Shown here in pieces: positions 17,783 to 52,210 of a stretch of 64,000 nt of DNA; position 1 is the first letter of the stretch, and each line of letters opens with the position of its first letter. The stretch is from Nemertoderma westbladi (Eukaryota > Animalia > Xenacoelomorpha): assembly GCA_032718475.1 (NCBI GenBank), contig JAUCBJ010008544.1, positions 6,248-70,247 on the forward strand, in the 5' to 3' direction. Below the pieces are notes generated by a model, which saw only the letters and a program-made list of their open reading frames with translations, did no database searches and had not been told where the DNA came from. The position numbers and the translations under genes are program-made.

Positions 17783-17820
17783 CTCCCCCCCATGCTATCT
17801 TCCCGGTGAGAAGATAGCAT
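17783..17820 (-). promoter_or_regulatory. Polypurine tract (GGGGGGGAG on minus) preceded by an 11-bp perfect hairpin
   Basis: CTCCCCCCC at 17783-17791; ATGCTATCTTC / GAAGATAGCAT stem at 17792-17820. Confidence 0.8.
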
Positions 17821-22200: not shown

Positions 22201-22348
22201 GAAGGTGATGAATTATTTCACTATAAGGTAGCATTTGTAGTTTAACTTTAACGTAAAAACTTTTGAAAATCCGACGTATTTTGATTAAGTTACAGTAATG
22301 TAATATGCCTATTCATATTTGTACACATAAAACCCTTAGGTACTCTCG

Positions 22349-22417
22349 TGGCGTAGTGGTCAGATGGTTAAGGCGTTGGTTACATTACGTAGGTTACGAG
22401 TTCGAATCCCAGTCGGG
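22349..22417 (+). other. tRNA-derived segment (Pol III A and B boxes) in U3 of the inner LTR; second copy at about 39604-39672
   Basis: A-box-like TGGTCAGATGGTTAAGGC and B-box GAGTTCGAATCCC with tRNA-like spacing; acceptor and anticodon stems are degenerate. Confidence 0.6.
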
Positions 22418-22464
22418 AAATTTGTATTTTGGGGCCATTTATTTTCGTGTGTTGCTAATTGGTA

Positions 22465-22711
22465 GGCCAATGAGAAGCGTACAGCGTAGCGAATGATGAG
22501 CCAGGCCAATCATAGGGCATAAATTATCTTATTGCTCAAATGTGAGGCAGTGGAAAATTCTGTTAGGATTCCATGTCCCAGATTAGTGTAAGGGCTGGAC
22601 TGCGTTGAACGATGAGCTGGGCCAATCATAGAGCACCGAAGCACTTCATTGCTCAATGGTGAAGCTGTGGAAAATTCTGTTTAGTTTCCATGTGCAATTT
22701 CTAGTATAAAA
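22465..22711 (+). promoter_or_regulatory. Putative LTR promoter: three CCAAT boxes, a ~115-bp tandem duplication and a TATAAAA box
   Basis: GGCCAAT near 22466, 22504 and 22620; TATAAAA at 22705-22711. Confidence 0.55.
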
Positions 22712-31300: not shown

Positions 31301-34153
31301 TACCTTAGACGACAAGTGACATCGGACAGCTACGATGTGTCTCTCGTTACTTCAAGGGCTAGAACAATGCCATTGAAGTATATGACTGTACCTCGTGGGG
31401 AGCTGCAAGCCGGGACGATATCCACCGATATTGTCAGTCTAGTTCAACGCGAGCTGGAGGCTAACTTGAAGGTCACATATTGGACGGATGCGACGTTGGT
31501 ACTTTGGTACATAAACAACGAAACATTCGAGTTCAAGACTTTCGTAGCCAACAGACGGGCTGAAATACTAGACCGGTCGCTCAATCAAGATTGGCGTCAC
31601 TGTCCAGGGAAGCTGAACCCAGCTGACATCGCGTCACGGGGAATGCAACCACTTGACTTTTGTAAACCGGACAATAAATCCTTTTGGTTTAGAGGACCCG
31701 ATTTCCTACAGCGACCATCAGACGAATGGCCACCGTTATTCGACGCGACAACCAACACCATACCAGAGGGTGCCGAGATAAAACTCGACAAGGTTGTCAA
31801 GTCTAAAGCGAAAGCCAACGCCAAGGTCAAAAGGAAAAAAGGACGGACGAAATCTGATGACCTGGACGCCAGACCTGACATTACGCCAGACGTCTCGCCA
31901 GACACTCGACCAGACGCTTGTACGAATCCTTCGCCGGATGTTCCGCGGGAGATTTCACCAGACGTTTCGCCGGATTGTTCACCAGATTACTCGCCAGACT
32001 ATTCACCAGAAGAGACACCAGATTGTTCTCCGGATTGTTCGCCAGATTGTTTGATGGAACTCTCGACAGAATGTCTACCGGACGTCTCACCAGACTGTTC
32101 ACCAGACATCTCGACAGACTGTCCACCAGACTGTCTACCAGACTTTGAACCAGACTTTCTGACAGAAGTTACGCTAGACAGACTTTGGGACCGACGACAG
32201 GACATTTCGCCGGATGTTCCGCGCTATGTCTCACCAGACGTCTCACCAGACTGTTCACCAGACGCTTCACCAGACTGTCTACTAGACACTCCATTAGAAG
32301 ACCCATTGGAGCGGACATTTAGAGACGTACCAAATTCGACTTCTTTGGACGACAGAGATGTGGCCACAGGGATTACACTCCGCTCGAAGAAGGTACTTGA
32401 CTTACCTACAGGTAAACGTGTGACTAAGGTTAGGAAGCTTACAGGCTCACAGGAACACACTGACGCTGTAGAGTTGAAACCATTACTGCCAGTCGACACA
32501 TTAGGTGCGGACGGTAAAGGTAAGACCGTAGAGATTGACGTACTTGGGGACTCAGACAAACCTACCGGAAGGCCCGTGGGCCTACCAAGTCCAGACAAGT
32601 ATCCACACTACGACTACACCTTACCCGATGACGTCACTAACACTTACGTTGACAGGATAGTGAACCTAACTAGATCATGGACTGACGCGTGCCGCAAGTT
32701 AGCATGGCTCAAACGATTGAGACAATATGCCAGAGGCAAACGCGACTTTCCTAGAAGACTTACCTTAAAGGAAATTGGCCACTGTGAAGTTGATATCATT
32801 CGACATTATCAATTGCGATATTTCGCACGAGAGTTCACAGCGATCAAACAAGGTAAACAGATTAAGTCTTCACCGATTTTGAGTTGGAGTCCGATTATTT
32901 ACCGGGGCTTACTTTGTCACAAGTCCAGACTCCAAAACATCGACTTTGCACTTGACTTTAGGTATCCTATCATCATACCGCAACACCATGAGTTACAGCG
33001 CGCTATGATACTGGACGCACATGTACAACTCAAACACGTAGGTAGACACCACTGTCTATCACACTTACGCTCGAGGTTTGTACTGATTAGACCTAGTAAG
33101 GCACTGAGTTCAGTAACACGGAACTGTATTATTTGTAAGAAGGTGCACGCGAGGATAGGACACCAAGAAATGAGTGAACTACCACTAGCAAGATTACAGG
33201 CGTTTAGACCCCCTTTCACTGAGACAGGGATAGACTGTTTTGGACCCATAATCGCGAAACGCGGAAGGGTACAGGTAAAACGTTGGGGATTGATCTTCAC
33301 TTGCATGGCCAGCAGAGCTGTCCATATAGAGCGAGTGACAGACTTGTCCACCAATGCCTTTATCCTAGCCTTACGGCGATTTATCGCTAGACGTGGATTG
33401 GTCAAATCCATATACTGCGACCAAGGGACAAACTTTGTGGGTGCACGGAACGAGATAACCAGAGCTTTGAGAAAATTGGACCAAAACCAGATTTCCGAGG
33501 AACTACGTCCTCACCGTATTGTTTGGTTTTTCAATACTCCAGACAGTCCGTGGAGAGGCGGCGTTTGGGAAAGGCTGATTGGCTCAATAAAGACAGCTAT
33601 GGCTAAAGTCGTACCGACGCAACACATCTTGACAGACGACCAACTGACGACGTTACTAATAGAAATCGAAGCAATCTTAAATACCAGACCGATCGCTTTG
33701 ATCCCAGACAATAACGACGTACAGTTTGCCTTGACACCAGCGCACCTGCTTATGCAGGCGCCGACGACACTGTTGCCCATTTCGGTACCCGTTGATAGTG
33801 ACGGATACGGCAACAAGGCTTGGAAAATCACTCAATTGCTTGCAAATAAATTCTGGGAAATATGGCAGAAATATTATTTGCCCTCTATTTCGACCAGAAC
33901 CTCTTGGTATCTAAATACCCGATGTTTAAGACGTGGTGACCATGTTTTATTGGCTGAAGCTAATCTGAAAAGACGGTTTTGGCTGACTGGAGTCATTTTG
34001 ACCACGCACCCTACATCTGGTGTAGTGAGGACAGTTACTGTACGGACTATCGACGGTCGTACCGTAGACAGACCTGTACAACGTCTCGTACTCCTTGAGG
34101 AGACTAGAAACGAGACGGGAGACTACAAATCTCCACCCAATATTAGTAAATAG
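25388..34153 (+). CDS. BEL/Pao Gag-Pol polyprotein (Gag with 3 Cys/His boxes, protease, RT, RNase H, integrase)
   Basis: PKFSG..W gag motif; CSYC..H..C, CWRC..GH..C, CSLC..H..LLH; ILDSAS; YYLPHH, DVEAMFHQV, FYVDD; FSDAS; NPADIASRG; GIDCFGP, CDQGTNF, GGVWERLI. Uninterrupted 2921 aa. Confidence 0.97.
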   Translation: MSDIPHSTRYPPTDYDSCDPDRSTVDEPRRRTRDSTDVTPLASPVPRTEIPETATRGDGRIEDFLTVPQTRSREPDMVSSTGSQENVIRSIGGHMAQITRNLGEGFRVLRELTAPMSRYEFYTLQVRIESRVHASVDKLKGLHELAELRGDNFTQVKIVDKLVSARESLIQFKSVIRLAQQEQFDQLLGESVSDALLQPEEEEELYCLDGRLETLTNFLRRCGVPIDEPEVEPRGTTEVLTTEGSRAYQHPPLDRSFVSVRSDVGNVGDVSRTASGITRQQQEVARRQQVAEEEARHQMAQIAIEGEKQHREDEARIAQLKAQAEFEASEMRRLEEDLAREAAAAADELARKKAASDARAKLEARQINARLAIQEAELAAQQQVADRREREMQLQFELNRRSRETANAQADLELDARDRSIRSRTGHDLSALDRMEARYRGIQKRIEEGSVGAIDRGEEFVEDYCKRFPQVIPMLKPTTPIKPVFVTKPKEITPVRSTQGNRFVVTELPQPRATSSPILAGNITSPPTVSRSLLVGREEPAFMTIKQVSKPLQVKPVTCCANPVIYKPTVDLNPDVFTRPLTQCLTRPTTSWKACEPAEQRRAVDLRSQRTRPRIIRRTRTRQPPYPDDSDSSSDLESTEREIFRTGAAAAADYKREERSTNPYIDNPPRETPQQKPTLQPAETISAKQFTEMTDRIAQLEERLEAQPSDRSRTSVELEQPRQHRPPRREQETRRTPTHREDDPVNNSYRRTTRGRERLDDAAEQGRGQLDLVSEIAKFAARHGLPAQQPPKFSGNAKHWRTLVDYVESQIAKCAFTSTEKFNYLLQVLSGEPKRLAETFIGVPDAFELAYDRLYSIYGGNVAMAKSIIEDLCRGGNISRPIDLLRLADEIKNAIGTLRSIGQLEYANAPTVLIRIIGRLHHRLRREWRRIEYQREEAGGLLKLTDVYQLISREAVIETRSNYTDHHIAAEGITVSAPNRTKPFPTNAKAVTYATPTETSKVLTPIGTTQPRQQLPADFVGCSYCERNGRNHSGHKLRGCRAFKELGIEERRLQIRSLDSCWRCMKPGHVRKDCPSDDTCSLCGRNHDALLHTTSHTPTRRFRREHPDKAARCDALYKERAPREIRTFYTDCMDQSGSSDEDEEEDDTFYVHAGEEQPSITLLTQNQLKGFSVIPIKITGTRGSKRIYAILDSASSHSYVDEQVADVVTDLSQGKTAQYTVSSMHGKRAIPVTRVKLTLDTLLSKAEHSKEERSLLPVRNLTFAATKDFSNLLGPVPEQSPEDRKYFRHLGIPECPVNYRSIAMLIGTDQFNLHQVWETRPSVITAGNPYACRTPIGWYTRAPIRSLEVSDQEDDVLSTCSLLTNTIDNSPSHSCGPIVRTALRQTCVTNADATDTDVTDLDTTIRTSDLQLLAVDQVVLTTEDLRVVAVDDSMNEDFGRLASLPKNPKVIDPTHQASTPVVDLGRLASLPIDQEVVKPPHDNSTPTSDTGRLASLPDTLTLATAADEDVDEDHGAVQAAFDRLLTERTIQWLEQDSAEPGSYETAMSEQEKRSLNIMRDTIRQTANGHYEVGMLWRDGQPKLVNNYPLALRRLKSIRQRLLRDETAHMQYNAQLQTYLQKGYAIRMLNPEVTTDQTYYLPHHFVRHPDKPGKVRVVNDCAALYQGMSMNSELMDGPNMNNYLMGVLMRFRQRKVAFTCDVEAMFHQVKALERDRDSLRFLWYPDGNLQLPPETYQMQVRVFGARDSPNCTMYALKQTALDRRDQFDPEVVRTVERDFYVDDGLKSCDTLERATTVAHQLQDCLAEGGFHLTKFASNEPELVNSFDPTDRSGGDLDLDLEPLPTTKVLGLSWDPNTDNFRVRVRSNDQTRPLTKRTCLSTMSRLYDPLCFISPVILHARIILRSIWQAGLEWDDPIPEKLAERWRDWEAQLTFLQDYTIPRVYFPLQTTFPADLELHSFSDASKDGLGVTLYLRRQVTSDSYDVSLVTSRARTMPLKYMTVPRGELQAGTISTDIVSLVQRELEANLKVTYWTDATLVLWYINNETFEFKTFVANRRAEILDRSLNQDWRHCPGKLNPADIASRGMQPLDFCKPDNKSFWFRGPDFLQRPSDEWPPLFDATTNTIPEGAEIKLDKVVKSKAKANAKVKRKKGRTKSDDLDARPDITPDVSPDTRPDACTNPSPDVPREISPDVSPDCSPDYSPDYSPEETPDCSPDCSPDCLMELSTECLPDVSPDCSPDISTDCPPDCLPDFEPDFLTEVTLDRLWDRRQDISPDVPRYVSPDVSPDCSPDASPDCLLDTPLEDPLERTFRDVPNSTSLDDRDVATGITLRSKKVLDLPTGKRVTKVRKLTGSQEHTDAVELKPLLPVDTLGADGKGKTVEIDVLGDSDKPTGRPVGLPSPDKYPHYDYTLPDDVTNTYVDRIVNLTRSWTDACRKLAWLKRLRQYARGKRDFPRRLTLKEIGHCEVDIIRHYQLRYFAREFTAIKQGKQIKSSPILSWSPIIYRGLLCHKSRLQNIDFALDFRYPIIIPQHHELQRAMILDAHVQLKHVGRHHCLSHLRSRFVLIRPSKALSSVTRNCIICKKVHARIGHQEMSELPLARLQAFRPPFTETGIDCFGPIIAKRGRVQVKRWGLIFTCMASRAVHIERVTDLSTNAFILALRRFIARRGLVKSIYCDQGTNFVGARNEITRALRKLDQNQISEELRPHRIVWFFNTPDSPWRGGVWERLIGSIKTAMAKVVPTQHILTDDQLTTLLIEIEAILNTRPIALIPDNNDVQFALTPAHLLMQAPTTLLPISVPVDSDGYGNKAWKITQLLANKFWEIWQKYYLPSISTRTSWYLNTRCLRRGDHVLLAEANLKRRFWLTGVILTTHPTSGVVRTVTVRTIDGRTVDRPVQRLVLLEETRNETGDYKSPPNISK
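31860..32290 (+). repeat. 12-bp-unit coding repeat (SPDC/SPDV) inside pol, between RNase H and integrase
   Basis: TCACCAGACTGT-like units. Confidence 0.85.
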
Positions 34154-34889
34154 ATGTGGGACCTTTGTTGGCCGCCACATAGACCTACTGTATTTTAGTT
34201 ATTTGTATTTGTATTACTGTACGTGCATTTGTAATCCTCTTCACTGTAGATAGAGACAGCGGTGGAATTCCATTGTCTTTATACGTGAACATGGAGGGTA
34301 GTACCCTTATGTATCACATAGGAGCGGGATTGTGTGTACAGTAGGAATGGAATTCCACTTGGAACCCACAAGTGAGACAATTTTCAAAAATTATTAGACA
34401 AATCCATTTAGTTGGATTTAAATTTAAGAAAAACGATTCTCCAGTGAAAGCAAATTCTAGAATACAGCTAGATAAAATTAAAATTGGGGAGGACAAGAGC
34501 GGATGGAAGGCTTGCGAGCCTACCGATAAATTTTTTTTGGAAAAAGAAAATCGGTCTTGTTCTACGTAGTCGTGTCTACTATTATTTAGACCGAATTAAT
34601 TCTCGACTGCACTATTTTTCTTGGGAAATGTAGCTTGGGAAATTAAAAGGTGAGTATTTTAGACTCGCGGCTAGTTTACCCGGAATTCGTTTTTTATCGG
34701 CACAATTTTTTGGATTAGGGGCCAGTGCGAAATCACGCGAACCCGAAGTCATTAGGCAAAATGGGTTGGGGTTTAGAGCAGAGTTGAGCCAAAAGCCAAC
34801 AAACTCTGGAGTCACCTCACATCTAACCTCTATTTTGTGCTTCATCTAGTAGAAACGTAACGATATGTAACCGCATATATTCGTATACA

Positions 34890-37649
34890 ATGGTGGAGAA
34901 GATGTATAAAGAGTTACGTCAAGGGTTTACGCAAGAACAGGAGCACCAGGCACCATTCAATCGTTATGGAGCTAAAAACTTTAGTGTGTTTGGAGTGGAG
35001 AGTATGGCTAGGAGTACGGCCAAGCTCGCTAAATCCAAGGCGGACCCGAATGTTACGCGACAGCGGTTGGACGCATACAACAAAAGAACGGAGGAATTAC
35101 GCGCGGAATACAATGCGTTATATCCCTACGATGCGTTATGCGACGCTAGCGACATTTGCGAGGATCCAGACACCGAAATACGCCGATTGTATCATACGCT
35201 GCAATATTTGACGGTAAACGAACCTTTACCTGCAGCTAGAGACGAATTTGAAGGAATGCATCTTTATAGACGCGCTCGAGGAGCGGATCCAGAGACCAAG
35301 GACGCGTTTTCCGTATACAAACTGTTTTATAAATGTGGAGCGTGTATGCGCGAGCAAGACAACGCGATTCCTATGCGGTTGAACTCGGAGAACCCCGAGC
35401 CGATATTAGCGCGATGTTCACACCACCAAAGTCTACGTTACCAAGAAGGCGGATACCCTTTGACAAATCCGTATCATTCATTTAAGATGAGTGGACCGAA
35501 CGCGGGTGAGATCGTTATTTACGAACCTAAATTAGTCGAACCAGACGTCTACAGCATGGTAGTGGACGAGTCTAACAAGTCGACACAAGAGAAACGGGAA
35601 GCTTTGAGCCTCTACAGGGCGTACAAGGCGTACGAGAAAGGCGAGATCGAGGAGTTCGGCGGAAGGCTCAAAGGATACTTTAGAGAGTATAACACGCTAA
35701 AAACTGGGACGGGTTATATCTCATATCTGATGTTCAGTTGGGATTACAAGGAGAGTAAGAGGAACAAATACACGGACGTATACGGAGAGGGAGATACCCC
35801 CGGCGTAAACGAGTTCGAGTCACAGTTGAAGTGGCGAGGTTGCGTGTATTGGGCGATTACTTCACCTCCGCGGATAATCTTGCAATACTATTTAGCGATA
35901 GAATCTTCGGTTAACGTTTGTTTCATCGCGGACGTAGTATCCAGAACCTTAAAGCGACACCCGTTATGTCTTGGCGAAGGACATACCTTTTACGATGGAG
36001 GAAGGACGCATACTGATGTATTCCGACGATTTCTCCAACCCTTTTATAACACCGATGCGCACTGCGAAGTTTTCACGCGAGCGGGACTTAGCGTTTTCAG
36101 GGACGTCTATCTCACTCACGCGGGAAGTCTAGTCGACAGACCGTCGATGTTAACGTTAGTACCCTATGACGGGGAACGCCACGCGGAATTCGAACGCCCG
36201 GAAGGATCCTGGAAGGCTCGCGAGCCTACCGCCCATCATGACGATGTGGATCCGACCGAGTTGGCGCTAATAGACGAACCGTTACGGCAACTCATAGAAA
36301 TAGAAGAGAACCTTCCAAGGAAGACGCGAACTGAGATACGCGAGTTAGAGAAAAGCGATGCCATGGTTTGTGTACAACCTACGGAGACGAACATACCGAC
36401 TGACCCGGATGATGAGAATTATCACGTGGACGGTAGCGCTCGCCCCATCGGAGACCTCATCTATGAGCGAGTTTGGTATCCTGCCAACACTATTTGTGGC
36501 AGATGTGGAGCAACTGGCCATCACGCAAAGAAGTGCGGAGCGAAGCACATATCTCTACCGGATTTAGTATGCAACTGGTGCGGGGATCAACGTTCGCACA
36601 CTTTCTACACTTGCTGGCGTTTCGTGGCGCAGTGTACTTATTGTAATATTAAGGGCCATAGGGCATCTGAATGTCAACTTAGAGACGTCCCCTATGAGCA
36701 CATGTCAGTTAAAATCGTTCGACAATTATTCGACCATTGGGAGGATCTAGCAGACGAGCATGTATCGACGCAGCGACGCCGCTTCCCTATGAGAGCACAT
36801 TTGGGATTTTGGGCCGTAAACCCTCTCATAATGTCAAAGGAAGGATATGTATCGGCTATGCCTCAGTACGATGAATTGTTGGAGGTATTGGATATATTGC
36901 CGTTGGACAGTGGATTCAAAGTTGTGCGGGACTATTTCTTACAAGTGCACCCGGACAACAAGAATACTTGGAACTTTCAAACTGTGGTGAACAAGATTAC
37001 CGCCGGAGAATTCGATAAACTGCGAGTTGAACAGCGGAATCGAGGAGCCTGGCATTCGATAGCTTGGGCATACCGGAGCGCATTTTATCACAAACGCGTA
37101 ACCTCGTGCATTCTGGACGAGACCGACGTTTTGCGTGAGACTGGCTTCAAGGCCACGCCGTTAGCGGAGAAGACGCGTCACCCACAGGATGATCAGCAAT
37201 TTCGTATACTCAAAGCCCAGAAGGCCGGACAAGAGATTAAGAAGATAGTGAATGTCGCCGAGAGGACGACATCGAAGTCGCAAATCCGGATGACTCGGGG
37301 CACGGTTTCCCTTGCTAGAGAACCACGCGGAGGGACAGGATACGCTTTGACTGAACCCATTAGGATTCAAACGACGTCAGAGAGCGAGGTGTCAACGGAC
37401 GGAACAGTCCTACCCTTTCGACTTCCTCCTAGCGTTGTAGAAACTCGATCCGATGTTAAGTCGACAGTTGGAATCGGACGAGGATTTAGAGGATTGAGCG
37501 CACGACGGATGTGCGAAACTCCCGTCGTCCCCTTTCCTAGCGTTTTGGAACCACCGACGACTCGACGCCGAAGTCCGAGCCCAGTTCGACCTCGACCACC
37601 CCCCAATCGCACTAGAGGACGTGGACGAGCCCGCTCAGCGAAGGAATAG
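34890..37649 (+). CDS. Additional 919-aa ORF of the inner element; unknown protein with three CCHC-type zinc knuckles and a basic R/P/S-rich tail
   Basis: CGRCGATGHHAKKC, CNWCGDQRSHTFYTC, CTYCNIKGHRASEC; no evident signal peptide or transmembrane segment. Confidence 0.85.
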   Translation: MVEKMYKELRQGFTQEQEHQAPFNRYGAKNFSVFGVESMARSTAKLAKSKADPNVTRQRLDAYNKRTEELRAEYNALYPYDALCDASDICEDPDTEIRRLYHTLQYLTVNEPLPAARDEFEGMHLYRRARGADPETKDAFSVYKLFYKCGACMREQDNAIPMRLNSENPEPILARCSHHQSLRYQEGGYPLTNPYHSFKMSGPNAGEIVIYEPKLVEPDVYSMVVDESNKSTQEKREALSLYRAYKAYEKGEIEEFGGRLKGYFREYNTLKTGTGYISYLMFSWDYKESKRNKYTDVYGEGDTPGVNEFESQLKWRGCVYWAITSPPRIILQYYLAIESSVNVCFIADVVSRTLKRHPLCLGEGHTFYDGGRTHTDVFRRFLQPFYNTDAHCEVFTRAGLSVFRDVYLTHAGSLVDRPSMLTLVPYDGERHAEFERPEGSWKAREPTAHHDDVDPTELALIDEPLRQLIEIEENLPRKTRTEIRELEKSDAMVCVQPTETNIPTDPDDENYHVDGSARPIGDLIYERVWYPANTICGRCGATGHHAKKCGAKHISLPDLVCNWCGDQRSHTFYTCWRFVAQCTYCNIKGHRASECQLRDVPYEHMSVKIVRQLFDHWEDLADEHVSTQRRRFPMRAHLGFWAVNPLIMSKEGYVSAMPQYDELLEVLDILPLDSGFKVVRDYFLQVHPDNKNTWNFQTVVNKITAGEFDKLRVEQRNRGAWHSIAWAYRSAFYHKRVTSCILDETDVLRETGFKATPLAEKTRHPQDDQQFRILKAQKAGQEIKKIVNVAERTTSKSQIRMTRGTVSLAREPRGGTGYALTEPIRIQTTSESEVSTDGTVLPFRLPPSVVETRSDVKSTVGIGRGFRGLSARRMCETPVVPFPSVLEPPTTRRRSPSPVRPRPPPNRTRGRGRARSAKE

Positions 37650-37756: not shown

Positions 37757-39460
37757 ATACCTAAAGAGGTGAGGTCTCTATAGGGGTGTGTCCAACAGGC
37801 GGCGGCGGACTCGTGAGGGTCTGGGGGCACGTTAAATCAATATATAGTGCTAGGGAGTCACTGAAGGCCCTCGTGTCTAGCGAACCATGAATCGACATGG
37901 TGCCGTGGTTCCGTCTAGTCGGCCTGTTGCCGTACTGCCAGTCCTGTACACAGTAGGGGTGGTGGCATGGCGTGATTTGTGGTTCATGTGGCGTGAACTA
38001 TGTTTTGTATGTGGGCGATCAGTGGCAGTTTGCTTGGGGCTTGGATGGGTTCCTTTGGCCATCAGCTGTTCCGTTTTTTTGATACTATATGTTATTGTCT
38101 CCATGTTCAGCTGATTGGTCTTTGGGATTTGTTCGGGTCTTTGAGCTTTCTGTTGCTGTGGGTACGTGAGTACATGTGATTGTATGTGTGGCCACTGCGA
38201 GTGAGTATGGGAACCCTTGCCAGTTGGTCCAGATGCCGCTGGTATTAGTAGGACCATATCTCTACTGCGCCTCAGCATACTTTGTGCACACAAAGTTATT
38301 TTGCCCTGTCGGCAAAATAAGGTACTCTCGATTAGCCTGTTAGTCGATACAATTTGTCCCCTCTGATTTGACCCCGATTTTGTCTTTACCGATTTTGTCT
38401 CTGTGTGTGCATGGTATGTGTTCGATTTGTGCTTACCGTTGTGTACTTGATTTCGTGAACATCTGTTGAGTACACGTGTACAGTGACTGGTAAGTGGTTA
38501 CTTGTTCAGTAGCTTTTGAGCTACAGACAGTATTGTCTTTTCAATACTGCCGGCGAGGCAGGTGAAAACGTGTCAAAATTCCATGTTGGGTAGCGCAAGC
38601 CCATGTGGGACAAGACCGTCGGTTAGGCCCAAGGGCGACCTTGGTGCTCGATCGCTATCGACTGGTCCACCTGCCGGTTGACTCTTTGTTATACTTTGAG
38701 TTGGCTCAATGTACAGTCAGGCCACAGTAAGTTGACAGTAGCCGCCCATCTGGCTACACGTTCGACGAGCTGTGCCGGTGTGATCGGGGGACCGAAAACA
38801 GAACCCGGGAAGCATCGGACCACCCTCCGGCCCAGTCTGATAATAACAAGCAGTCAGACTGGCCCCAGGGGTGGTGGAAAGGTGTCCGCCTTGTGGGTGC
38901 GCCTCCGGGAGGAGCCCAGAAGGACACAAGCGTATGTTTGAATGTTGGGTTTGGAGGAGCGAGATATGGAAGGAAGGCTTGCGAGCCTACCGTTAGCAAT
39001 TAGTGCTCAGGAGAAGATATCCAGACCAGCAGGACGAACTTTTTAGATCGTCAGGAGGACTCATTTGAAAGTTATTAGCGCATTATGTTTATATTATATT
39101 TGGACAGATTTAATTTGGTGAAGGTTTATTATGTATATTTACAATATATAAAGATTTATCGAAAGAGTTTGATTTATTTGTTCGATTTGTTTTGATTTAT
39201 TTGTTCTGATTTGTTTAATTTGTTTACCTTGATAACCGAAAGCCTTTTTTTGTATTTTAGGCACTAAAGTTAATTCGTAAATTTGTATTTGTATGTACGA
39301 TCGATTGTATTTACGCCGTATCTGCAATATTAAGTATGCAATAATTAGATAGTGATTATATTTTATATTTTAGGCCCTACCAGTAAATTTAGAAATAGTT
39401 TGTAGATATTTTATATTTTGATTGGTGAAAACAGTCTTACTTACTGTTTTCATGGAGCGG

Positions 39461-41723
39461 TGATGAATTATTTCACTATAAGGTAGCATTTGTAGTTTAA
39501 CTTTAACGTAAAAACTTTTGAAAATCCGACGTATTTTGATTAAGTTACAGTAATGTAATATGCCTATTCATATTTGTACACATAAAACCCTTAGGTACTC
39601 TCGTGGCGTAGTGGTCAGATGGTTAAGGCGTTGGTTACATTACGTAGGTTACGAGTTCGAATCCCAGTCGGGAAATTTGTATTTTGGGGCCATTTATTTT
39701 CGTGTGGTGCTAATTGGTAGGCCAATGAGAAGCGTACAGCGTAGCGAATGATGAGCCAGGCCAATCATAGGGCATAAATTATCTTATTGCTCAAATGTGA
39801 GGCAGTGGAAAATTCTGTTAGGATTCCATGTCCCAGATTAGTGTAAGGGCCGGACTGCGTTGAACGATGAGCTGGGCCAATCATAGAGCACGAAGCACTT
39901 CATTGCTCAATGGTGAAGCTGTGGAAAATTCTGTTTAGTTTCCATGTGCAATTTCTAGTATAAAAGGCCGGTTTGCCTTCGGTTATCACCTTCTCTGTTA
40001 ATCATCCTGATTATCGTTTATTCTTGTAAAATTAGTTAATTCGGTTTCTTGTTGAAACTTTATTTGATAAATCCTTTTGTAAAACTGTAAATATACTGCA
40101 ATTTCCTGACATGTTTTCTTTTGGTCCGACTTCGGGACAGCCGAACACCAGGGAGATGGCAGCCTAGATCGTTAGGCCGTAAGCAACGCAGGGAAGGGAT
40201 GTCCACAACACGCTAGCGCCCACATTGGATCGACCGCGCACCCCCTTTGCCCCTTCGAAATGCTCAACTTGCTATGCAGCGCCCGCTTTGTGAGAAGGTA
40301 AGACTTTGTTCGACGCCCTTGCCCGCCGTAAGACCTATAGATCAGGGTAAGCGTGACACCGTACTGGACGCCGCAAATTTAGGATCAAATAATTATATCC
40401 AGACACCCCCCCCCCTTTGTCAAGTCCTACGAATCCCTGGGTTAACCTGTACTTCCTACAGGTGCGAACTATTGCCATTCGTCAGTACGCGAGTACATAT
40501 TAGGTACGGACAGCATACGTTCCATAATTTAGTGATTCATAGCACTGACTGTTTGGTACCGGTTCGCTTTGTAGAACGTACATTAGTACCCCCCCCCCCC
40601 CCTGTCTGGAGTTAGCTATTTGATCAGGCAAGGAGCATTTCTGCTACCGGCACACTGCTTGGCCTAGGGAGGTTTATTAATATCCTACCGCGCCTTGCCA
40701 CGTACTGATAGGTATTGCTGCTAACTACCGCAGCAACAAAGTTCTAGAATTAAATTAGTATACCAGATCAGCTAACGTACGGTAGCGATTAACCCCTATT
40801 CTTATCTTACAACCAGAATCTGGTATTAGTGCCGATCACGGGTGTAGTTACTAACACTGTGGTTGCCCATTGGGTTGTGGATAGGAAGGAGAGAGCTTTG
40901 ACGTCATTCGTGAGTATAAAGTTCTACAAACGCGACTAGTTTATTTTAGTAGCTAGCGCACGGTATCATTTTAGTCAGAAAATCACTAAAACCTAGTAAA
41001 AGGAATTACACGAAATTGTTTTATTTGTAACACACCCACACACACACGCCCTAAAACATATCGCCCTTAAAGTTCTACTAGCTATAGCGTACTATACATT
41101 ACTTTAGGTGGAAATTATCTGTATTTGTAAAATTAGGATCTGATTTAGTTGCGGCAAGATAAGGAGTATTTCACTTTCGTTATTAAACTGTTGTTTGTCT
41201 GGACAACGGTATTGTTACATTTAGGCCTGACCTTTTAGACTGATTTCGTACAGGGGGATCAGTTATTGTTACATTTAGGCACGACCTTTAGGCTGATTTC
41301 GACAGGGATGATCAGCATTGTTACACTAGGTCTGTTAACCACCTAGTTCGTATATAACCCATATAAATCACACCGCGGCAAGTTACTGTATTTAGGACTG
41401 TCAGTGATAGTTAGGATTCGCTGCGCGGGGATTGTTTTCCCGTGAGTTTGGTCTGTTACTGTAACTGTACATCTGCCTCACCGGTTAGAGGACAGGTATC
41501 CTTCTGTCTAGTACGTAGGCATTAGACCCGCTCACGTACATAGAATAGATACAAGGCTCTGTTCCTCGCCAGTAGTCGTTTGTGTACTATATCTGTTTGT
41601 TTAGATATCCTGGACTGGGATTTGTTGTCAGATACTGTACAAGCCCGTATACATTACTAGAGTCTCATAGTAAGATACATCGTTACTAGGATCTGGTAAG
41701 CGGTATACTACTGGACCCTTACA
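39461..41723 (+). repeat. 3' LTR of the inner element (2263 bp)
   Basis: Preceded by a short purine-rich GGAGCGG and the hairpin TGAAAACAGT / ACTGTTTTCA (39426-39452). Confidence 0.97.
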
Positions 41724-41728
41724 GAAGG

Positions 41729-44397
41729 CGTGCCTCCCGTTTCTGAATCTGAGTAGGACCTCGCTCCCTGAGTTGTAGATATTGGGACCCTCTAGCAGAT
41801 AATCGTTTAGGCATTTGCCATTGGTCTTAGCCGATGCGTCAACTACCATCCGCAGTTTACCTTTCTTCGGGTCTAGAGCCACGTGAAGTGGTAGGTTATA
41901 GGTCCTGTCCGTGTTCAGTTCGTCGACCGGTAACTCCACGGCCCATCCTTTCTCGACGTACTTCCTTATTGTCTTATGGATGTACTCATCCTTTTCGGGG
42001 CTCCGTTTCAGCGTTTGCTTCAGTTTGCGAAGCCTCGTGAGTACCATCCTCTTGTTGTCAGGCAACGGTATCTTCGGCTGTTTCCATACCATGCCTATGG
42101 TGTACCGTCCCTCCTCACATCTCATGGACTCCTTCACACTTTGTATTGCCTGTTTATCTTCTACCGAGGTTCCGACCCCGGTCTCTTTCAATCCCTCAAA
42201 GTCCTGCCAAAGTAGTCTCCTGAGCTGCTCCTCCGCTCCTTCATCTTCCATCTCCCTCATAGTTCCCGCGAACATGCACCCTGATGTCTCCGACATCCTA
42301 AACGGAATCTTGGTCCTGATCGGGCTGCTTAGCGTCCACCCGAATGATGTTAAAATTGCCACCGGGTCACGCTATCCGTCTTTGCCGAAGACAGTCTGCA
42401 TTCTCTCGTGGGCCGTCGGGCAGTCCATTCCTACTATAATGGATACCTTCCTAACGTCCACCTCTGGTATTGAGAAATCGATACCATCCAGGAATCTATA
42501 TTGTTCGACTTCGATGTTGGTTGGTCGCCTGGCGTTGATATTTATCGACTCTATCACCTGGATGGGGTCGATGGTCGCCCCATAGTCGCATCCCGGTGCT
42601 ATCGCTGCTATCGCGCACACTATCTACTTGGCCTCGTCTTCAATCCTATCTCTTCGGCCACCCAATTCTCGACCAATGTGAAGGCTGCTCCACTGTCGAC
42701 CAGCATTAACGTGGTTACTGATCGATCGCCTTCTCCGATCACCCTCACTGGCACTACCCCGAGTAGCACCATTCCTCTCTTCTTCGCCCCTACAGTGCTT
42801 GTCGCCATTGTCTGGCCTTTGCCTTGACCAAACTTAACTGGTGTTTCTTTACACTCCTCAACCTTGTGTCCCCCTATCACACATCGGTGACAAATTCCAT
42901 TCTTATCCGCATAGGCTTTCCGGTCCTGTTCGGGTAACGCCTGCCAATGCTTACAGTACATGGTCTTATGGGTTCCGTCTTTATATAATTGACATTCATA
43001 TTCTGGGTTATAGCGTTCCCTATATAACCCTACACTTATTGCGCGTAGGTTTACATCTACCGGCTTAGTGTTTTGGTTATTTGGCCTACTGGGTGTGTTG
43101 GGGTTATATTTGTTCATGTTGTTATTTTTTCCCCGTTCGTGCCACAGTTTGGCCCCACTTCCGGCTATCTGTGGACTTGCAGTCCCCTGTGTCGCCGCGT
43201 ATGGTAGGGCTTGTCTTAATTTTGGAAACGCATTCGCCGCGTTATGCTCTATCCGTAATATGCTGTAACCGTACGGTTACACCAGTCTTGGGTCTGTCGT
43301 CCGGTCCCTGTAAGTGGGGTATCAACAAACGTTTCCATAACTTCTGGCTCCCCGTAAACACTACCCGAGCCAGCCTCACTCTCTGATAGCCCCAACTGCG
43401 CCAGTTCTAGTCGGCGCTTCTGTTTGGCCTGATATTGCATAAGCCCCCTTAGCCAGGCATGCATATCATCCCACACACGCTTTCCCGTTCTCTCTCTCTC
43501 TATCCTCTCGCAAACTCTGGTTCGCTAACTCTGTTTCTCTCGCCACCCGCTCTCTACGTTCATTTGTTTCTCTCGTTTCTCGCTCTTTGCACTCCTCTTT
43601 CTCCCTCTTGTGCTCCTCTTTCTCCCTCTCTTCTCGCTCCTTGCGCTCCTCTTTCTCCCTCTCTTCTCGCTCCTTGCGCTCCTCTTTCTCCCTCTCTTCT
43701 TGCTCCCTACAGTTCCTGGCCACCCTCTCGACTCTCTCTTTACACTCCCTCGCCAACTCTCTCTCTTTCTCTAGCAACGCAGCTCCCTCTTCCAACTACC
43801 TCTCTAACTCTTTCTGGTCTATTTCTAACACCCTTCTTACTTTTGCGGAGGATGTAGCGGACTTGTTGGTCGCGACGGACTCCCGTCGCCTCTCTGTCCT
43901 ACTAACTTTCCCCCGCTTTCTGGGGTCCTCGCTAACCGACGAGACCGAATCCTCGGGGTTAATCTCGGATTCGCCTTCGTGCGGGTCTGCCCAACCCACT
44001 AACTTAATTCCCCTAGCATCCACTAAATACGGCCCTATGTACACAACTTGGGGCTCCATAATCCCGGATCGCCACAGTTCAAATATTTCGGTGGCGACCC
44101 CCCTCGCTCTCTCACTGGCTAGTTCTCCCTGTCCGAAGCGAACTAGGTATGTAAAATGTTTATTCGACTCACCTAGTCGCCGACTCAACTTCCCTTGGTC
44201 TATCTTTACTCCTTCCCTGGCCTCCTTAAGTTGCTTCTTTGTTGCGTTGTAGGCTCATCGGAGCCGGTCACAGGTTCCGACGTCCTCGTCGCCGACCTCT
44301 CCTCCTCCCCTCCTGGTTCGGCGTCGTACCGGCGGCCCCACCTTCGCCGTTCCGGTGGGCCGTCCGTCGCCCTCGGCCTGTGGCTGGCCGGCGACAT
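41729..44397 (-). pseudogene. Outer BEL/Pao gag, protease and N-terminal RT (frameshifts, stops)
   Basis: E/R/K coiled-coil stretch, CHRCVIGGHKVEEC, LVDSGAAFTLV, FGWTLS, TYNLPLH, RMVVDAS, LNDYLLEGP, LLRFR. Confidence 0.88.
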
Positions 44398-45813
44398 CGG
44401 TACTACGAGCGCCGTTGTGCATCGACTCCTCCTCCTGTTGTGGTAGACGGCCGCCCTCCGCTTGGGCTACCGGATCGTTCCTTTCCGGCGAGTCCGGTGT
44501 TGCGGGTCGATACCGTCGCGGTGTAAAAGCTTTTGCGGATATAACCAGTCATTTTTCTCCGTAATGAACTGTTTAGTTGTTTTAGCGGACATAACAAGCC
44601 ATTTTCTGCCGCAATATGCCTAATACTCTAAAAGACTGGAACTCCGATGACGAAATCTGTCAGCTGGTTTACTGTACACGTGGAGCCTCTCTTTGTTCAG
44701 GCTCGGCCAATCAGAGCGATTTTCATTTAATCTTGCACAGAGGCCTACGGAAAACCGCGCAATGCATTACGGTCTTTGTTTACCTTTCTGAGCGAGAACA
44801 ACTGCTTGGAAATTCTTCTGTACTTCTGTGTTGGAAGTTTCAGACTTTGGCCAACATTAGACGGCTTTGATTATAAGAACGTAAATCTATTATCCTGTCA
44901 ACTTGTCAACTGGCTGACTGCACTGTGCAACTGTGCAACAAACCATAACAACTGCACCTGGCTGCAACTGCGGTACCGACATACTGACTTTCACCACATT
45001 ATTTTACTTCTGTTTACTGTCTGTTATTAATGGTTATATGTTGATGGATATGTTGTTATATTTGGAGAATATCGATAAATAATCATAAAACCCCTATCTT
45101 CTTGATTACTGAAGGTAAGAGGGACCTGTTACCAGTAGCAATTGCGACTTACATTACAGTGGTTTTAGTGTGCATTAAATGCTATTTCATAATCCCTACA
45201 TGTGTCAGTTGCTATCCTCCTTATATATGGTTAAATTCAGTGACGGTCGGCAGATCAGTGTGCAGCAGTGTGAAGTCGTATGCAGCAGTGTGACAGATAA
45301 TAAAGCATCTCCTAAGGAATGCGCTATTTACGAAAATCAGTAGCCATCTCGTTGTGTTTAGTATAAGTCATAACTCTGTTTTATACTTAAAGCGCCACGT
45401 CCTAAAGGAACTGTTGATATTTCCCCGAAAGTGAATAATATTGTCAGAGATTATAAAGTAACGATCAATCGAATAATACAGTAGGTCTGCAACGCAATAA
45501 CTTCGAAGCACCCGAATCCAGTCTCCCTTAACTGTGGGTGAATGATCGCGCATAGACTGACTTCGGCTAATGTTACTTCATGTGCATTAAATAATTGTTA
45601 TAGGCTAAAGTCGATTTATAAACAAGAAGACACCTAAAATTGGCAGGTTAAACTGCTAAAGGTCTGAAAGCGCGAACACGTGGATCGTTTCGTTCGTATC
45701 GTCCGGGGTCCGCGGCGGTGTCGTCTCTCCCTTTAGATTTCGGGCTTCGCTCATCCTTTAGTCTTTGATGGTGGCTGGCAGTCACAGCTTTAGCAGTTGT
45801 CTGATTTTCGTAC

Positions 45814-46399
45814 TGTGATGGGATCAGGGGATCCCGACCGGTTAGTTTTTGTTACGCGTCGCCGCTCGTTGTTATGAGAAAAGGATATTACAGTAGTTAG
45901 TTGTTGTTCTGATATTGTTAATGCAAATCACCAAATATAATATAATAGCAAGAAATATATATGTAATGTTAATGAATAAGATATAATAGCGTTGTACCGG
46001 TAGTAGCGGTGACGGTACGAAAATGTCACCTAACTGCACTAATTAATGACTGAGTAAACTGAACAACCGACCGGTAGCAGGACGATATATATGTATATAA
46101 ATAGTACACTACTACGACCTTCGTCCAGTGGATACTCTCCCCCCTGCTCTCATTGGCTGTTGGCCCACTTCACGCCTCTCACCTCTGTGGGAGTGCTTCC
46201 CCCCCGCTGCTGTTACTTTCCCTCTCCCAAGAGGTTTGACCTATTACCCCTTTTGTGTGGCTCTTTGGGGCCTTATGTTGTGCCCGTTATTGGGGGTGAT
46301 ACGAGGTTGATTGTAATCAACCTCGTACTCCCCAATATTGCTTAAAACGCCACTTCCCAACTTTATGGGGTCGGTGGGGCGGAATTGAATCCGCTCACA
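45814..46399 (-). repeat. 5' LTR of the outer element
   Basis: Direct repeat of 17191-17782. Confidence 0.95.
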
Positions 46400-47270
46400 T
46401 CGGGTAACAGATAGGTGTAGCGCCTACCCCTAACTTCAGGTGACAGATAGGTGTAGCCCCCACCCCTAACTTCGGGTAACAGATAGGTGTAGCCCCCACC
46501 CCTAACTTCGGGTAACAGATAGGTGTAGCGCCCACCCCTAACTTCGGGTAACAGATAGGTGTAGCCCCCACCCCTAACTTCGGGTAACAGATAGGTGTAG
46601 CCCCCACCCCTAACTTCGGGTAACAGATAGGTGTAGCGCCCACCCCTAACTTCGGGTAACAGATAGGTCTAGCCCCCACCCCTAACTTCGGGCAACAGAT
46701 AGGTGTAGCCCCCACCCCTAACTTCGGGTAACAGATAGGTGTAGCCCCCACCCCTAACTTCGGGTAACAGATAGGAGTAGCCCCCACCCCTAACTTCGGG
46801 TAACAGATAGGAGTAGCTAGCCCCCACCCCTAACTTCGGGTAACGGATAGGAGTAGCTAGCCCCCACCCCTAACTTCAGGTAACAGATAGGAGTAGCCCC
46901 CACCCCTAACTTCGGGTAACAGATAGGAGTAGCCCCCACCCCTAACTTCGGGTAACAGATAGGAGTAGCCCCCCACCCCTAACTTCGGGTAACAGATAGG
47001 AGTAGCTAGCCCCCACCCCTAACTTCGGGTAACGGATAGGAGTAGCTAGCCCCCACCCCTAACTTCGGGTAACAGATAGGTGCAGCCCCCACCCCTAACT
47101 TCGGGTAACAGATAGGTGTAGCCCCCCACCCCTAACTTCGGGTAGCAGATAGGTGTAGCGCCCACCCCTACCCTCGGGTAGCAGATAGGTGTAGCGCCCA
47201 CCCCTAACTTCGGGTAACAGATAGGTGTAGCGCCCACCCCTAACTTCGGGTAACAGATAGGTGTAGCCCT
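46400..47270. repeat. 33-bp minisatellite, right part
   Basis: Same unit as 15903-17190. Confidence 0.97.
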
Positions 47271-48401: not shown

Positions 48402-50789
48402 CCCTTTTAAGTACAGCAAACGGGCGGTGCCCGTTGATGACATGCGCGGCGGACGGGCACCGCCGTCACAATTCTATGCTTTGCTATAGTGATTTGTTAT
48501 GGCGCCGGATTTCAATGCAGTACATTCCCTGACCCTTACCCTCATAGCCGGCAGAAATGCAGGCCTATATGTAAGTGTATAATTAGCCTATGACGCAGTC
48601 CCTCCAGCTGATAACACTTGTGTGTAACTGAATTTCTACATAAGTTTTCCCTATTGACTGCTTTCCTCGACCCTTCTATTAGATAGTAATGGATAGCGTA
48701 ATATTAATAAACCATACCATGCTGGAGTATTATTGGTCACATACATGGCCATAAGTGATTTTATATACAGTAACATTGGTACCGGTATAAATTAAATTAA
48801 TATTTGAGGTTGGACTGCAAACGGTTAGGTATTGCATTATATGTTGACAAGTCCCTAAAAGGTGCCACCCTGCTCCATTGCGCGGGAAATTCAAATGATT
48901 GAAAGACATGTTATTTGTACTGGAAAGGGTGGCAGATCAGATCTGCCACCTATATATTGGCGGTAAATTCAAATCTGTTTTAACATTGAATACATGAATA
49001 GAGTAAGACCAATCTTCCAATGTAATTCATTGAATCAGAATAAATTATTTATTATCGGTTTAACTCACTCATCCGTTAATGTTGTTGATTTATCTATTCT
49101 GGGACTTCGAGCAGCACGTGAACAACTAAACCAGCACGCTAACTACCGCTAGTTTGGGGCTTCGAGCACCACGTGAACAACTAAACTGGCTGGTTTCCTA
49201 GTCTGGGACTTCGAGCAGCACGTGAACAACTAAACCAGCACGTTAACTAGTCTGGGACTTCGAGCAGCACGTGTACAACTAAGCTGCCTGGTTAACAAGT
49301 CTGGGACTTCGAGCAGCACGTAAACAACTAAAGCTGACTGGTTAACTAGTCTGGGACAAATATAGCAGTATAGGCAGAAGCATTATACACCTATTGTTAT
49401 TACAGTAGGCCTACCTGCGAAATATTTTACTATCAGTTCCCTGCTATATTGTTATAATTATATTGTTCAGATGTAATTATAACTGATACAAGCAAATAAC
49501 AAATGTTCTTTACATTTTACTGATAGAAGTTAAGCCAAATACCTCGATCCACCCCCCTTCTCAATTTGCAAGTTTACTCGAAGTCCCAGACTAGTTAACC
49601 AGTCAGCTTAGTTGTTCACGTGCTACTGGAAGTCCCAGACTAGTTAACGTGCTGGCTTAGTTGTTCACGTGCTGCTCGAAGTCCCAGACTAGGTATCCAG
49701 CCAGTTTATTTGTTCACGTGCTGCTCTATGCCCCAGACTAGTTAACGTGCTGGTTTAGTTGTTCACGTGCTGCTCGAAGCCCCAGACTAGTTAACCAGTC
49801 AGCTTGTTGTTCACGTGCTGCTCGAAGTCCCAGACTAGGTATCCAGCCAGTTTATTTGTTCACGTGCTGCTCTATGCCCCAGACTAGTTAACGTGCTGGT
49901 TTAGTTGTTCACGTGCTGCTCGAAGTCCCAGACTAGTTAACCAGTCAGCTTAGTTGTTCACGTGCTGCTCGAAGTCTCAGACTAGTTAACCAGTCAGATT
50001 AGTTGTTCACGTGCTGCTCGAAGTCCCAGACTAGTTAACCAGTCAGCTTAGTTGTTCACGTGCTACTGGAAGTCCCATACTATAGTTAACCAGTCAGCTT
50101 AGTTGCTCACGTGCTGCTCGAAGCCCCAAACTAGTTAACGTGCTGGTTTAGTTTTAGTTGTTCACGTGCTGCTCGAAGTCCCAGACTAGGTATCCAGCCA
50201 GTTTATTTGTTCACGTGCTGCTCTATGCCCCAGACTACAAGTTAACGTCAGGTTTAGTTGTTCACGTGCTGCTCGAAGTCCCAGACTACCAGAATAGATA
50301 AAACAACAACAATAATGGATGAGTGAGTTAAACCGATAAGAAATAATTTATTCTGATTCAATGAATTACATTTAGTCTTACTCTATTCTTGTATTCAATG
50401 TTAAAACAGATTTGAATTAACCGCCAAAATATAGGTAGCAGATCTGATCTGCCACCCTTTCCAGTACAAAATTTCATGTCTTTCAATCATTTGAATTACC
50501 CGCGCTATGGAGCAGGGTGGCACCTTTTAGGGACTTGTTTATATGTTGTACTCTGTATGCATTCCTTTCTGTAATTATACAAATTATCTATTATAATATT
50601 ATTTTATGTTGTAATATATGTTTTTAAAATAATTTTTTATTAATTTTTTGAAATTTAAAATTTTTAAAACTTTTGAATTTTTTTTACTTTTTTTTGTTTT
50701 TCAATTTCCGGGATTTTGAGAAATTAAAAAAAAAATTTCTATAGCCGGATCTCAGTGCAGGAAATATTTATTAAGCCGTAGTTAAAGGG
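48402..50789. mobile_element. TTAA-flanked non-autonomous DNA transposon (piggyBac-like ends)
   Basis: TTAA|CCCTTTTAAGTACAGC ... GCCGTAGTTAAAGGG|TTAA; imperfect ~15-bp TIRs with TTAA at 48398-48401 and 50790-50793. Confidence 0.6.
48847..50538. mobile_element. Foldback/Mutator-like non-autonomous element
   Basis: ~250-bp TIRs (ACAAGTCCCTAAAAGGTGCCACCCTGCTCC...), inner inverted arrays of a ~45-50-bp unit (CTGGGACTTCGAGCAGCACGTGAACAACTAA), 10-bp TSD TTATATGTTG (48837-48846, 50539-50548). Confidence 0.88.
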
Positions 50790-51112
50790 TTAATTCTTAA
50801 ATAAAGGAGGACATTCCCCTTTAGAAACATCTAAATCCGCCACTGTAGGTGATTGTAATTAATATACAGAATATGTATGTACATATGTACCTATATACAC
50901 TACCTACCTACATATATATATTTATACAATATACCATGGAAATTTGAATTTCCCTCTCACTAACACGAAGTTCGTATTATATATTTTTTTATGTTTCATG
51001 TCCCCTTAGGGACTCCATTTACTGTATTTCTGCAAAGCTTACCGGTATTTCTAATTTAGTCGTCTAATTTAATTTAGTTTAAATTTCATGCGTAACTTTG
51101 TAATAATTTCCC

Positions 51113-52210
51113 ATGGCGATAGCCCAAAGTATGATAACAAACATTGAGGAAAACATGAACCACTCAACCGAGCAGCCATCACTAGTCGCTATGATGCCAT
51201 TGAGACGCTGTGGTTCTCACGCGATTCGTTTTCGGTTGAACATGTCACCTGAGGTGACATCACCATACCCGTTACACGTAATCGACTATTTGCGAATTGT
51301 CCCTAGTGATTGTGATTTGGGAGATGTGGAACATTGGAAACAAATGATTAGAGATGTGGTTGGTCTTCAAAACACTTTGATGGTGCCCTGGAAAGGCATA
51401 AATTTTCAAGAAGAGGCCGTTGTCAATGAACTGATAGATTATCCAAAAAGATCCGTTCACACGGTTGTTGCCCATCTTCTCAAAGCTTACGGTAAAGCCA
51501 ATTCCGCCAGTATTGTTATTGATAAATCACTTGATTGTGTCCACTATGCTAGCGAGTACATGGATGCTTTTCCTTCCCTGAAATTTATTCATATTGTTCG
51601 CGATCCAAGAGCTCAAGTTAATAGCATGAATGAAGCCATAATCCATGAGTTTTCCACTCTTAGCAATGCTCTCATCTGGTTGGATGCATACGAGAAGGCG
51701 GAACATTTGGTTGCCAAGTATCCAAGTCGGTGTGTGTCCATTCGTTTTGAAGATTTCATCAACGACCAAGAAAATGTACTCAAAAAAATTTGTAATTTTC
51801 TCAACATCCAATTTTCGCCGGAGATGCTTGATATTTCAAGGTCCACAGAAGCAAATGAATTGTCTAAGAAATCGGCTCTTTGGAAGTACAACGCACTTGG
51901 CCCGGTTGCGGCCAACATTGACAAGTTTCGCAAGAAGTTGTGTGACGATGATATTCAAATTATTGAGTCTCTTTGCGGTCATCTAATGAAAAAGTACGGC
52001 TACCACAAAATATTTCCAGAAATGTGCATTGATGTCACGGATAAAATGAAAGCAGACGCGAGGAAGCGAAGTGACGATGGTCGCACAGAGGCATGGAAAG
52101 CCCTGGAATGTGATCCGGAGTTTCCCGATGACTACAAATTAAGAAATAATCGGAATGAATTCTTAGCATGTTGCAAACGCCGTTTTGAACAAAAAAAAAT
52201 CTTGACTTAG
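51113..52210 (+). CDS. PAPS-dependent sulfotransferase family protein, single coding exon
   Basis: 5'-PSB-like PLRRCGSH, IDKS, 3'-PB-like FIHIVRDPRAQVNS, IRFEDFI..ICNFL, IIESLCGHLMKKYGY; AATAAA at about 52338. Confidence 0.8.
   Translation: MAIAQSMITNIEENMNHSTEQPSLVAMMPLRRCGSHAIRFRLNMSPEVTSPYPLHVIDYLRIVPSDCDLGDVEHWKQMIRDVVGLQNTLMVPWKGINFQEEAVVNELIDYPKRSVHTVVAHLLKAYGKANSASIVIDKSLDCVHYASEYMDAFPSLKFIHIVRDPRAQVNSMNEAIIHEFSTLSNALIWLDAYEKAEHLVAKYPSRCVSIRFEDFINDQENVLKKICNFLNIQFSPEMLDISRSTEANELSKKSALWKYNALGPVAANIDKFRKKLCDDDIQIIESLCGHLMKKYGYHKIFPEMCIDVTDKMKADARKRSDDGRTEAWKALECDPEFPDDYKLRNNRNEFLACCKRRFEQKKILT

Follow-up and report, generated by a model that had tools for sequence, protein, structure and literature searches.

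Self-priming of an LTR retrotransposon has been shown for Tf1, in which the RNA's first 11 bases pair with its primer-binding site (PBS) and a cut by RNase H falls between bases 11 and 12 (available sections of PMC7175516 and PMC4600332), and it has been proposed for Tj1, sushi, Tcn1 and the plant TAR elements (PMC7175516, PMC4600332, PMC6317226, PMC6934838 and PMC3601003, each in partial text). In the TAR lineage of plant Ty1/copia elements (Houba, Osr-1), self-priming is predicted from at least 10 nt of complementarity located 0–5 nt after the LTR (PMC6317226, partial text). Half-tRNA priming is described for Ty5, copia, Osser and Bianca, and a conserved hairpin site for GalEa, in the accessible portions of PMC10886601 and PMC6317226. 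The BEL/Pao elements are classified by the ICTV as Belpaoviridae, with an 18-nt PBS for tRNA-Arg or tRNA-Gly of the host and LTRs measuring 0.2–1.2 kb, and their replication is described as poorly understood (PMC8742986). Terms for the PBS or for priming do not occur in the available text of four BEL/Pao papers (PMC554778, PMC3118150, PMC6238403, PMC8556966), and that of PMC8220671 mentions the PBS in general terms only. Neither self-priming nor a primer built by splicing was found for BEL/Pao in the literature searched; an earlier note of it may exist in subscription journals, Repbase, GyDB or supplements, which lie outside that scope. Cer7 of C. elegans reportedly encodes its own primer-like RNA, a statement for which the literature search gave no confirmation.

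The window analysed here, a whole stretch of 64,000 nucleotides of an animal genome (Nemertoderma westbladi), contains two BEL/Pao LTR retrotransposons, one nested in the other. The PBS of each is a perfect complement of a segment of its own LTR. The reading that we prefer is that the outer element primes itself in cis, in a Tf1-like manner, with an internal piece of R of its own RNA; the sequence, the predicted folds and the analogy with Tf1 would together give this a probability of about 0.75.

Two nested elements and their primer sites

Both elements have TG...CA LTRs, a polypurine tract and a target-site duplication (Table 1), and Peptidase_A17, DUF5641 and integrase domains are recognised in both by Pfam, with DUF1759 in the inner one only. 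The two Pol proteins are collinear by tblastn, in the order PR-RT-RH-IN, at an identity of ~30–36% (30–34% in the tblastn pieces, 36% over conserved columns); the best database identities for the two elements are 47% and 36%. The 18-nt tRNA-Arg or tRNA-Gly site of the ICTV description is absent, TGG being missing after both 5' LTRs, and this departure leaves membership of BEL/Pao by Pol phylogeny unaffected. The elements do not belong to the Tf1/sushi group, as their Pol domains are those of BEL/Pao and not of Ty3/gypsy (chromovirus).

Table 1. Positions of the features of the outer and inner elements within the window.
Feature	Position	Strand	Remarks
Outer 5' LTR	46399-45814	-	586 nt; TG...CA; terminal TGTGA/TCACA
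Outer 3' LTR	17782-17191	-	primer 10-mer retained; 9 nt duplicated just 3' of the hairpin
Outer target-site duplication CCCGA	46400-46404; other copy 17190-17186	-	within a 36-bp tandem array
Predicted outer promoter	46048-46156	-	CCAAT 46156; TATATAT 46091; two TCAGT(T/C), A at 46060 and 46051
Outer hairpin GGTGAC/GTCACC	46008-46030	-	11-nt loop; predicted alternative fold without U5 and PBS
Outer candidate self-primer ATTTTCGTAC	46024-46015	-	10/10 complement of the PBS; 3' end towards U5
Outer U5-side partner	45866-45857	-	predicted to pair 9/10 with 46014-46005, directly 3' of the primer; probability 0.97
Predicted outer terminal U5 hairpin GGGATC/GATCCC	45820-45835	-	probability 0.92
Outer PBS GTACGAAAAT	45813-45804	-	offset 0 from LTR end; called non-tRNA by missing TGG
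Outer pol, 5' part	41724-43276	-	protease-like, RT start; severed by the nested insertion
Outer pol, 3' part	19299-22209	-	RT end, RNase H / Peptidase_A17, integrase, DUF5641; three reading frames
Outer polypurine tract	17783-17791	-	G-rich
Inner 5' LTR	22206-24466	+	2261 nt; target-site duplication GAAGG
Inner acceptor-like pyrimidine tract + CAG, then TCCTAC	23150-23175	+	
Inner candidate self-primer TACTTCCTAC	23195-23204	+	10/10 complement of the inner PBS
Inner PBS GTAGGAAGTA	24467-24476	+	offset 0; called non-tRNA by missing TGG
Inner gag-pol ORF	25385-34153	+	2922 aa stop to stop; DUF1759, Peptidase_A17, DUF5641, Integrase_H2C2 (below cut-off)
Inner second ORF	34827-37649	+	940 aa stop to stop
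Inner 3' LTR	39461-41723	+	

The LTR pair of the outer element differs by 9 substitutions and 3 indels and that of the inner by 4 substitutions. The outer pol is split over several frames and interrupted by the inner element; being broken, the outer element shows a past state only. In its leader, 45088–45600 has a very high contig depth, suggestive of an inserted high-copy repeat, and other outer copies have joints from about 44350–44520 to 45680–45806; a contig that is joined at 45806 hints weakly at a second copy with the same site. Of the 896 contig differences, the 40 listed include none within the 10-mers of primer and PBS.

In the inner Pol, an in-frame 12-bp tandem repeat at 31880–32300 (+) encodes a low-complexity insert of the DCSP/DVSP type in the interval between RNase H and integrase. 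Pfam recognises nothing in the second ORF, and no homologue of it turned up among proteins of 517–1645 aa; the ORF carries three CCHC zinc-knuckle-like motifs and occupies the position of the env-like gene of some BEL/Pao elements. At 22340–22420 (+), and again in the 3' LTR, stand A-box-like and B-box-like motifs that we take to resemble those of tRNA-derived promoters; neither ARAGORN nor Rfam calls this stretch. A tRNA-Cys called by ARAGORN at 39110–39200 looks spurious, the sequence being AT-rich, and was rejected. Elsewhere in the window are a large inverted-repeat element that contains 49-bp tandem repeats (48847–50538), single long ORFs for a sulfotransferase (51107–52210, +) and for a RWD-IBR ubiquitin-ligase-like protein (59503–61005, -), and a different retroelement, with a reverse transcriptase ORF bearing DUF6451 and 62-bp repeats on its flanks (8563–10278, +).

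An earlier note on this DNA, made from the letters alone, had described a TGG-less outer PBS with a perfect complement inside the LTR, and both observations are borne out. In the two elements alike, the match starts at the first base past the LTR and stops at 10 nt, the self-primer 10-mer occurs in both LTR copies, and the polarity is such that extension would copy U5. Each therefore offers at least 10 nt complementary to its own LTR within 0–5 nt of the LTR end. Both complements end in TAC, as had been remarked. Dinucleotide shuffling reproduced the outer match in 2/5000 trials at offset 0 and 6/5000 at any offset from 0 to 5, and the inner one in 21/5000 and 115/5000, respectively; among internal 10-mers, 13/8494 and 19/14984 have a complement in the own LTR. 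The LTRs (586 vs 2261 nt) are indeed unalignable in the sense that blastn returns no match of at least 40 nt between them, and the two elements, distant as their Pol proteins are, carry two different 10-mers, each complementary over 10/10 positions.

Other parts of the architecture that had been proposed as common to the two elements are not supported. The GTTA and GC..ACTA flanks are at chance level, an equal similarity being found in 2074/10000 random position pairs. The 10-mer forms the loop of a hairpin in the outer element, where it takes up all but one of the 11 loop bases; in the inner element it spans stem and loop, and the hairpin stabilities are merely in the top 8–9% of LTR windows (21/273; 102/1111). 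The spacing of +28 to +37 is arithmetically right when counted from the A at 46051 (outer) and 23168 (inner), but these start sites are doubtful. The outer TATATAT lies 31 nt before the A at 46060 and 40 nt before that at 46051, and by this distance it would suit 46060 better as a start, so that the caveat already voiced about a second TCAGT gains weight. In the inner LTR, CCAAT boxes and TATAAAAG at 22705 make a clear promoter about 460 nt upstream of the TCAGT; of the 96 YAGs in this LTR, that of the TCAGT has the highest pyrimidine content and is acceptor-like, and a weaker TATATC 30 nt before it leaves a start there possible. Because the outer TATA favours 46060 and the inner TCAGT is acceptor-like, an identical +28 spacing is not established. 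From the predicted start, the promoter motifs would place the primer 27–36 nt or more inside the transcript, compared with the first 11 nt in Tf1.

The acceptor-like site of the inner LTR, joined to a donor-like site at 22831, yields a second junction match of 9 nt to the inner PBS (candidate at 23170). The inner element thus has two candidate primers, which is counted against self-priming in cis. One DNA contig skips 40398–40464 in the inner 3' LTR, the location of both candidates, and possibly represents a subfamily with a different primer region. Another contig ends at the acceptor-like site; it was discarded as evidence of splicing, since its end can be put down just as well to an additional base at that place in the 3' LTR. 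For the outer primer, too, a splice junction within the 10-mer was rejected (best match 4 nt). Rfam gave nothing near gathering score on either LTR, and therefore no known ribozyme in them.

In folding predictions for the outer RNA, primer and PBS pair with a probability of at least 0.95 in 16/20 choices of start and end. The R:U5 helix behind the primer is equalled in stability by 2/1000 shuffles; most of the contigs compared differ from the window copy at 46005, which would remove the end pair of that helix. The local hairpin reaches 0.94–0.96 in RNA ending at 45900 or 45870 and is disfavoured, at 0.06–0.07, in RNA that extends to the LTR end. A pairing between 5' flank and leader is borderline (32/500 shuffles). 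For the inner element, the predicted long-range pairing probability is 0 across 1.26 kb and no helices are added beside primer:PBS; extra structure beside this helix is thus predicted, and significant, in the outer element and absent in the inner one.

Self-complementary primer sites in BEL/Pao relatives

A profile search for RT-RNase H supplied 91 loci, made up of 11 in genome contigs and the best 80 of 556 in metagenome contigs, which were grouped into 65 families. The LTR end could be fixed independently, by the divergence of the LTR pair, in 19 families; the remainder comprised 8 with an LTR start only, 23 that were searched blind and 15 too truncated to score. We infer that the relatives are animal DNA in host-associated assemblies. 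Seven loci (L001, L002, L003, L005, L007, L008, L010) lie in bacterial genome bins, most with both LTRs, and the BEL/Pao loci in such bins are most likely contamination from the host animal. No relative was found in a search of viral contigs.

A self-match of 10–14 nt is present in 16 of the 19 families, starting 0–4 nt after the LTR end and with different letters in each family. It is contiguous in four of the 16 (L005, L019, L027, L047), and in the other 12 the longest match runs across a GT-AG junction inside the LTR. The three families outside this group are L050 and L071, with a TGG site of tRNA type and no self-match, and L007, where the self-match reaches only 8 nt. The permissive junction search (any GT, any AG) also gave at least 10 nt in 22/418 cross-family pairs. 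Although it required no more than GT, the donor that it chose was GTAAG or GTGAG for 9 of the 12 junctions, and GT also begins the primer site in 19/21 elements. When splice signals were confined to the strict form and the site had to begin with GT, 14/19 families matched vs 3/420 cross-family pairs, all of them sister families, and 0/21 matched on the opposite strand; scoring each family's PBS against its own LTR, which had been suggested as a check, thus gives a result above chance.

The sister families L065 and L049 each have a match of 10 nt in the unspliced and 14 nt in the spliced form, and where the two families differ, to either side of the junction, the changes are matched. In the L065 contig, one LTR copy lacks a 117-nt intron, removed exactly at GT..AG, and the other copy keeps it; the intron-free junction matches the PBS at 14/14 positions. 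This copy may stem from a spliced transcript, from DNA without the intron or from a mixed assembly. Blind searching gave at least 10 nt in 5 of the 8 families with an LTR start only and in 7 of the 23 others, vs 4/115 shuffles; the 16 of those 23 that yielded nothing include many with incomplete LTRs. In L091 the match is contiguous, and over its 5' part it is similar to the end of the exon in L065 and L029, which at sequence level is as would be expected from intron loss. The sites of L040 and L062 begin with TGG or TTGG, yet 10 and 14 nt of them match a splice junction of the own LTR; TGG alone is therefore no proof of tRNA priming. The idea that the primer of the relatives lies at the first bases of the transcript, after the initiator motif, was dropped in favour of the splice-junction reading in view of the acceptor-like context and the junction matches. 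Predicted pairing exceeds 0.5 in 8/12 spliced vs 2/12 unspliced forms, and in 2/4 contiguous families.

In a quick IQ-TREE analysis (822 columns, 35 rows; L007 left out for its coverage), the contiguous families require 4 separate changes among the junction families, and the TGG families L050 and L071 group together (support 99). The tree gives no direction of change; we infer that the intron-free forms arose by intron loss. The window elements join each other at a support of 89, with a long-branch warning and at a base without resolution. This long-branch node is the one link that RT phylogeny provides between them, and with a Pol identity of ~33–36% the proposed lineage of self-priming BEL/Pao elements is supported as to self-priming, whose signature extends beyond the window, but not as a close lineage. 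The best reading of these sequences is that many BEL/Pao elements share the pattern, the primer often being assembled by splicing, and that the window elements represent the intron-free form.

Proposed route of priming and competing explanations

In the full outer transcript, the primer:PBS helix is predicted to form, with the R:U5 helix as its continuation, at the expense of the local hairpin. Dominance of that hairpin would be confined to RNA stopping short of the U5 partner, where it could shield the 3' copy of R. A cut 3' of ...AC, most likely made by the RNase H of the element as in Tf1, would leave a short 5' fragment with a free 3'-OH (about 46 nt long for a start at 46060); granted self-priming in cis, we put the odds on that enzyme, by analogy, at about even. 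By the general LTR scheme and that of Tf1, minus-strand synthesis would then copy U5 and the part of R that is 3' of the cut. The sequence 5' of the cut, any intron included, would be restored from the 3' copy of R, and it is for this reason that an intron could survive. Plus-strand copying of the primer would rewrite the PBS and so keep primer and PBS in step. In most relatives, splicing would remove an intron from the 5' R region and so put the primer together, and intron-free forms such as the outer element would stem from repeated loss of the LTR intron. A more general proposal, which to us seems evenly poised between right and wrong, is that a large part of BEL/Pao outside arthropods replicates without tRNA, with an R primer assembled by the spliceosome from the 5' LTR copy only, and that intron-free offshoots use an RNA switch between the hairpin and primer:PBS plus R:U5.

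An LTR-derived primer could also act in trans or be cut by the host: a short capped RNA, from this or any solo LTR, would receive its ...AC end through early termination or a nuclease of the host and anneal to the PBS. Such a primer could make do with a short match and no cis fold, which suits the inner sites, 1.26 kb apart without predicted pairing, and the several relatives that lack a duplex fold; the GT at the start of 19/21 sites hints, moreover, at a sequence-specific cut. Nevertheless, the R:U5 helix behind the primer is significant in the outer element, whose predicted cis fold is robust, and Tf1 employs its own RNase H (available text of PMC7175516), so that we regard this explanation as unlikely. 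Somewhat less probable again is that the pairing serves as a structure for regulation or packaging (closing of the 5' end, splicing, translation, dimerisation), priming being left to a fragment of a host tRNA or to some different RNA of the host. TGG-less half-tRNA primers are known in Ty1/copia (PMC10886601 and PMC6317226, partial text), and a host tRNA fragment might match the PBS. A structure of that kind would hardly account for a match that always lies 0–4 nt past the LTR end, in priming polarity and with letters that differ per family, or for its absence from both TGG families.

Chance complementarity, or a rearranged copy that has lost its normal TGG site, has the smallest claim and seems very improbable. 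A 10-mer in a 2.3-kb LTR does arise in 115/5000 shuffles, and both the high-copy repeat in the outer leader and the joints there in other copies would fit rearrangement. Against this, both elements have exact target-site duplications and a match at offset 0, and the pattern is repeated in 16/19 independent families; to judge from the sequences, the family survey has largely refuted this explanation. Self-priming in cis, for its part, leads to a sharp prediction for the outer element: the RNA 3' end would lie at 46015 and the cDNA start at 45814. If it holds for many BEL/Pao elements, self-priming would extend to a third LTR superfamily, retrotransposon priming would be tied to host splicing, these elements would be beyond the reach of silencing by tRNA fragments, and annotation tools that demand a tRNA site would miss them.

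Relation to described priming systems

The earlier note regarded a lineage of self-priming BEL/Pao retrotransposons as the best candidate for an undescribed system. The mechanism as such has a precedent in the self-priming of Tf1; the part of the claim that stands is a proposed BEL/Pao variant with an internal primer. As in Tf1/Tf2 of Schizosaccharomyces pombe, Tj1, Tf1/sushi and Tcn1, a tRNA site is missing, the PBS pairs with RNA of the own LTR and a cut is required, which is here predicted. Unlike the Tf1 group, which is Ty3/gypsy, the window elements are BEL/Pao, and their candidate primer, which ends in AC, would be internal to R. It would lie at about +37 to +46 or +28 to +37 in the window, and past the first exon and mostly split by an intron in the relatives, whereas that of Tf1 is the first 11 bases.

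With the TAR lineage, both window elements have in common the feature from which self-priming was predicted there. They differ in that TAR elements have the copia domain order and plant hosts, and a primer split by an intron does not figure in the accessible part of the description in PMC6317226. The likeness to the Belpaoviridae of the ICTV covers PR-RT-RH-IN, DUF1759, Peptidase_A17, DUF5641, the LTRs, the polypurine tract and the 5-bp target-site duplication; the differences are the lack of a tRNA-type PBS and, for the inner element, an LTR of 2.26 kb. Half-tRNA systems resemble the window elements in priming without TGG, but in those systems the primer is a fragment of a host tRNA or is unknown, whereas here the PBS has its complement within the element's own LTR, and the two sequences change together.
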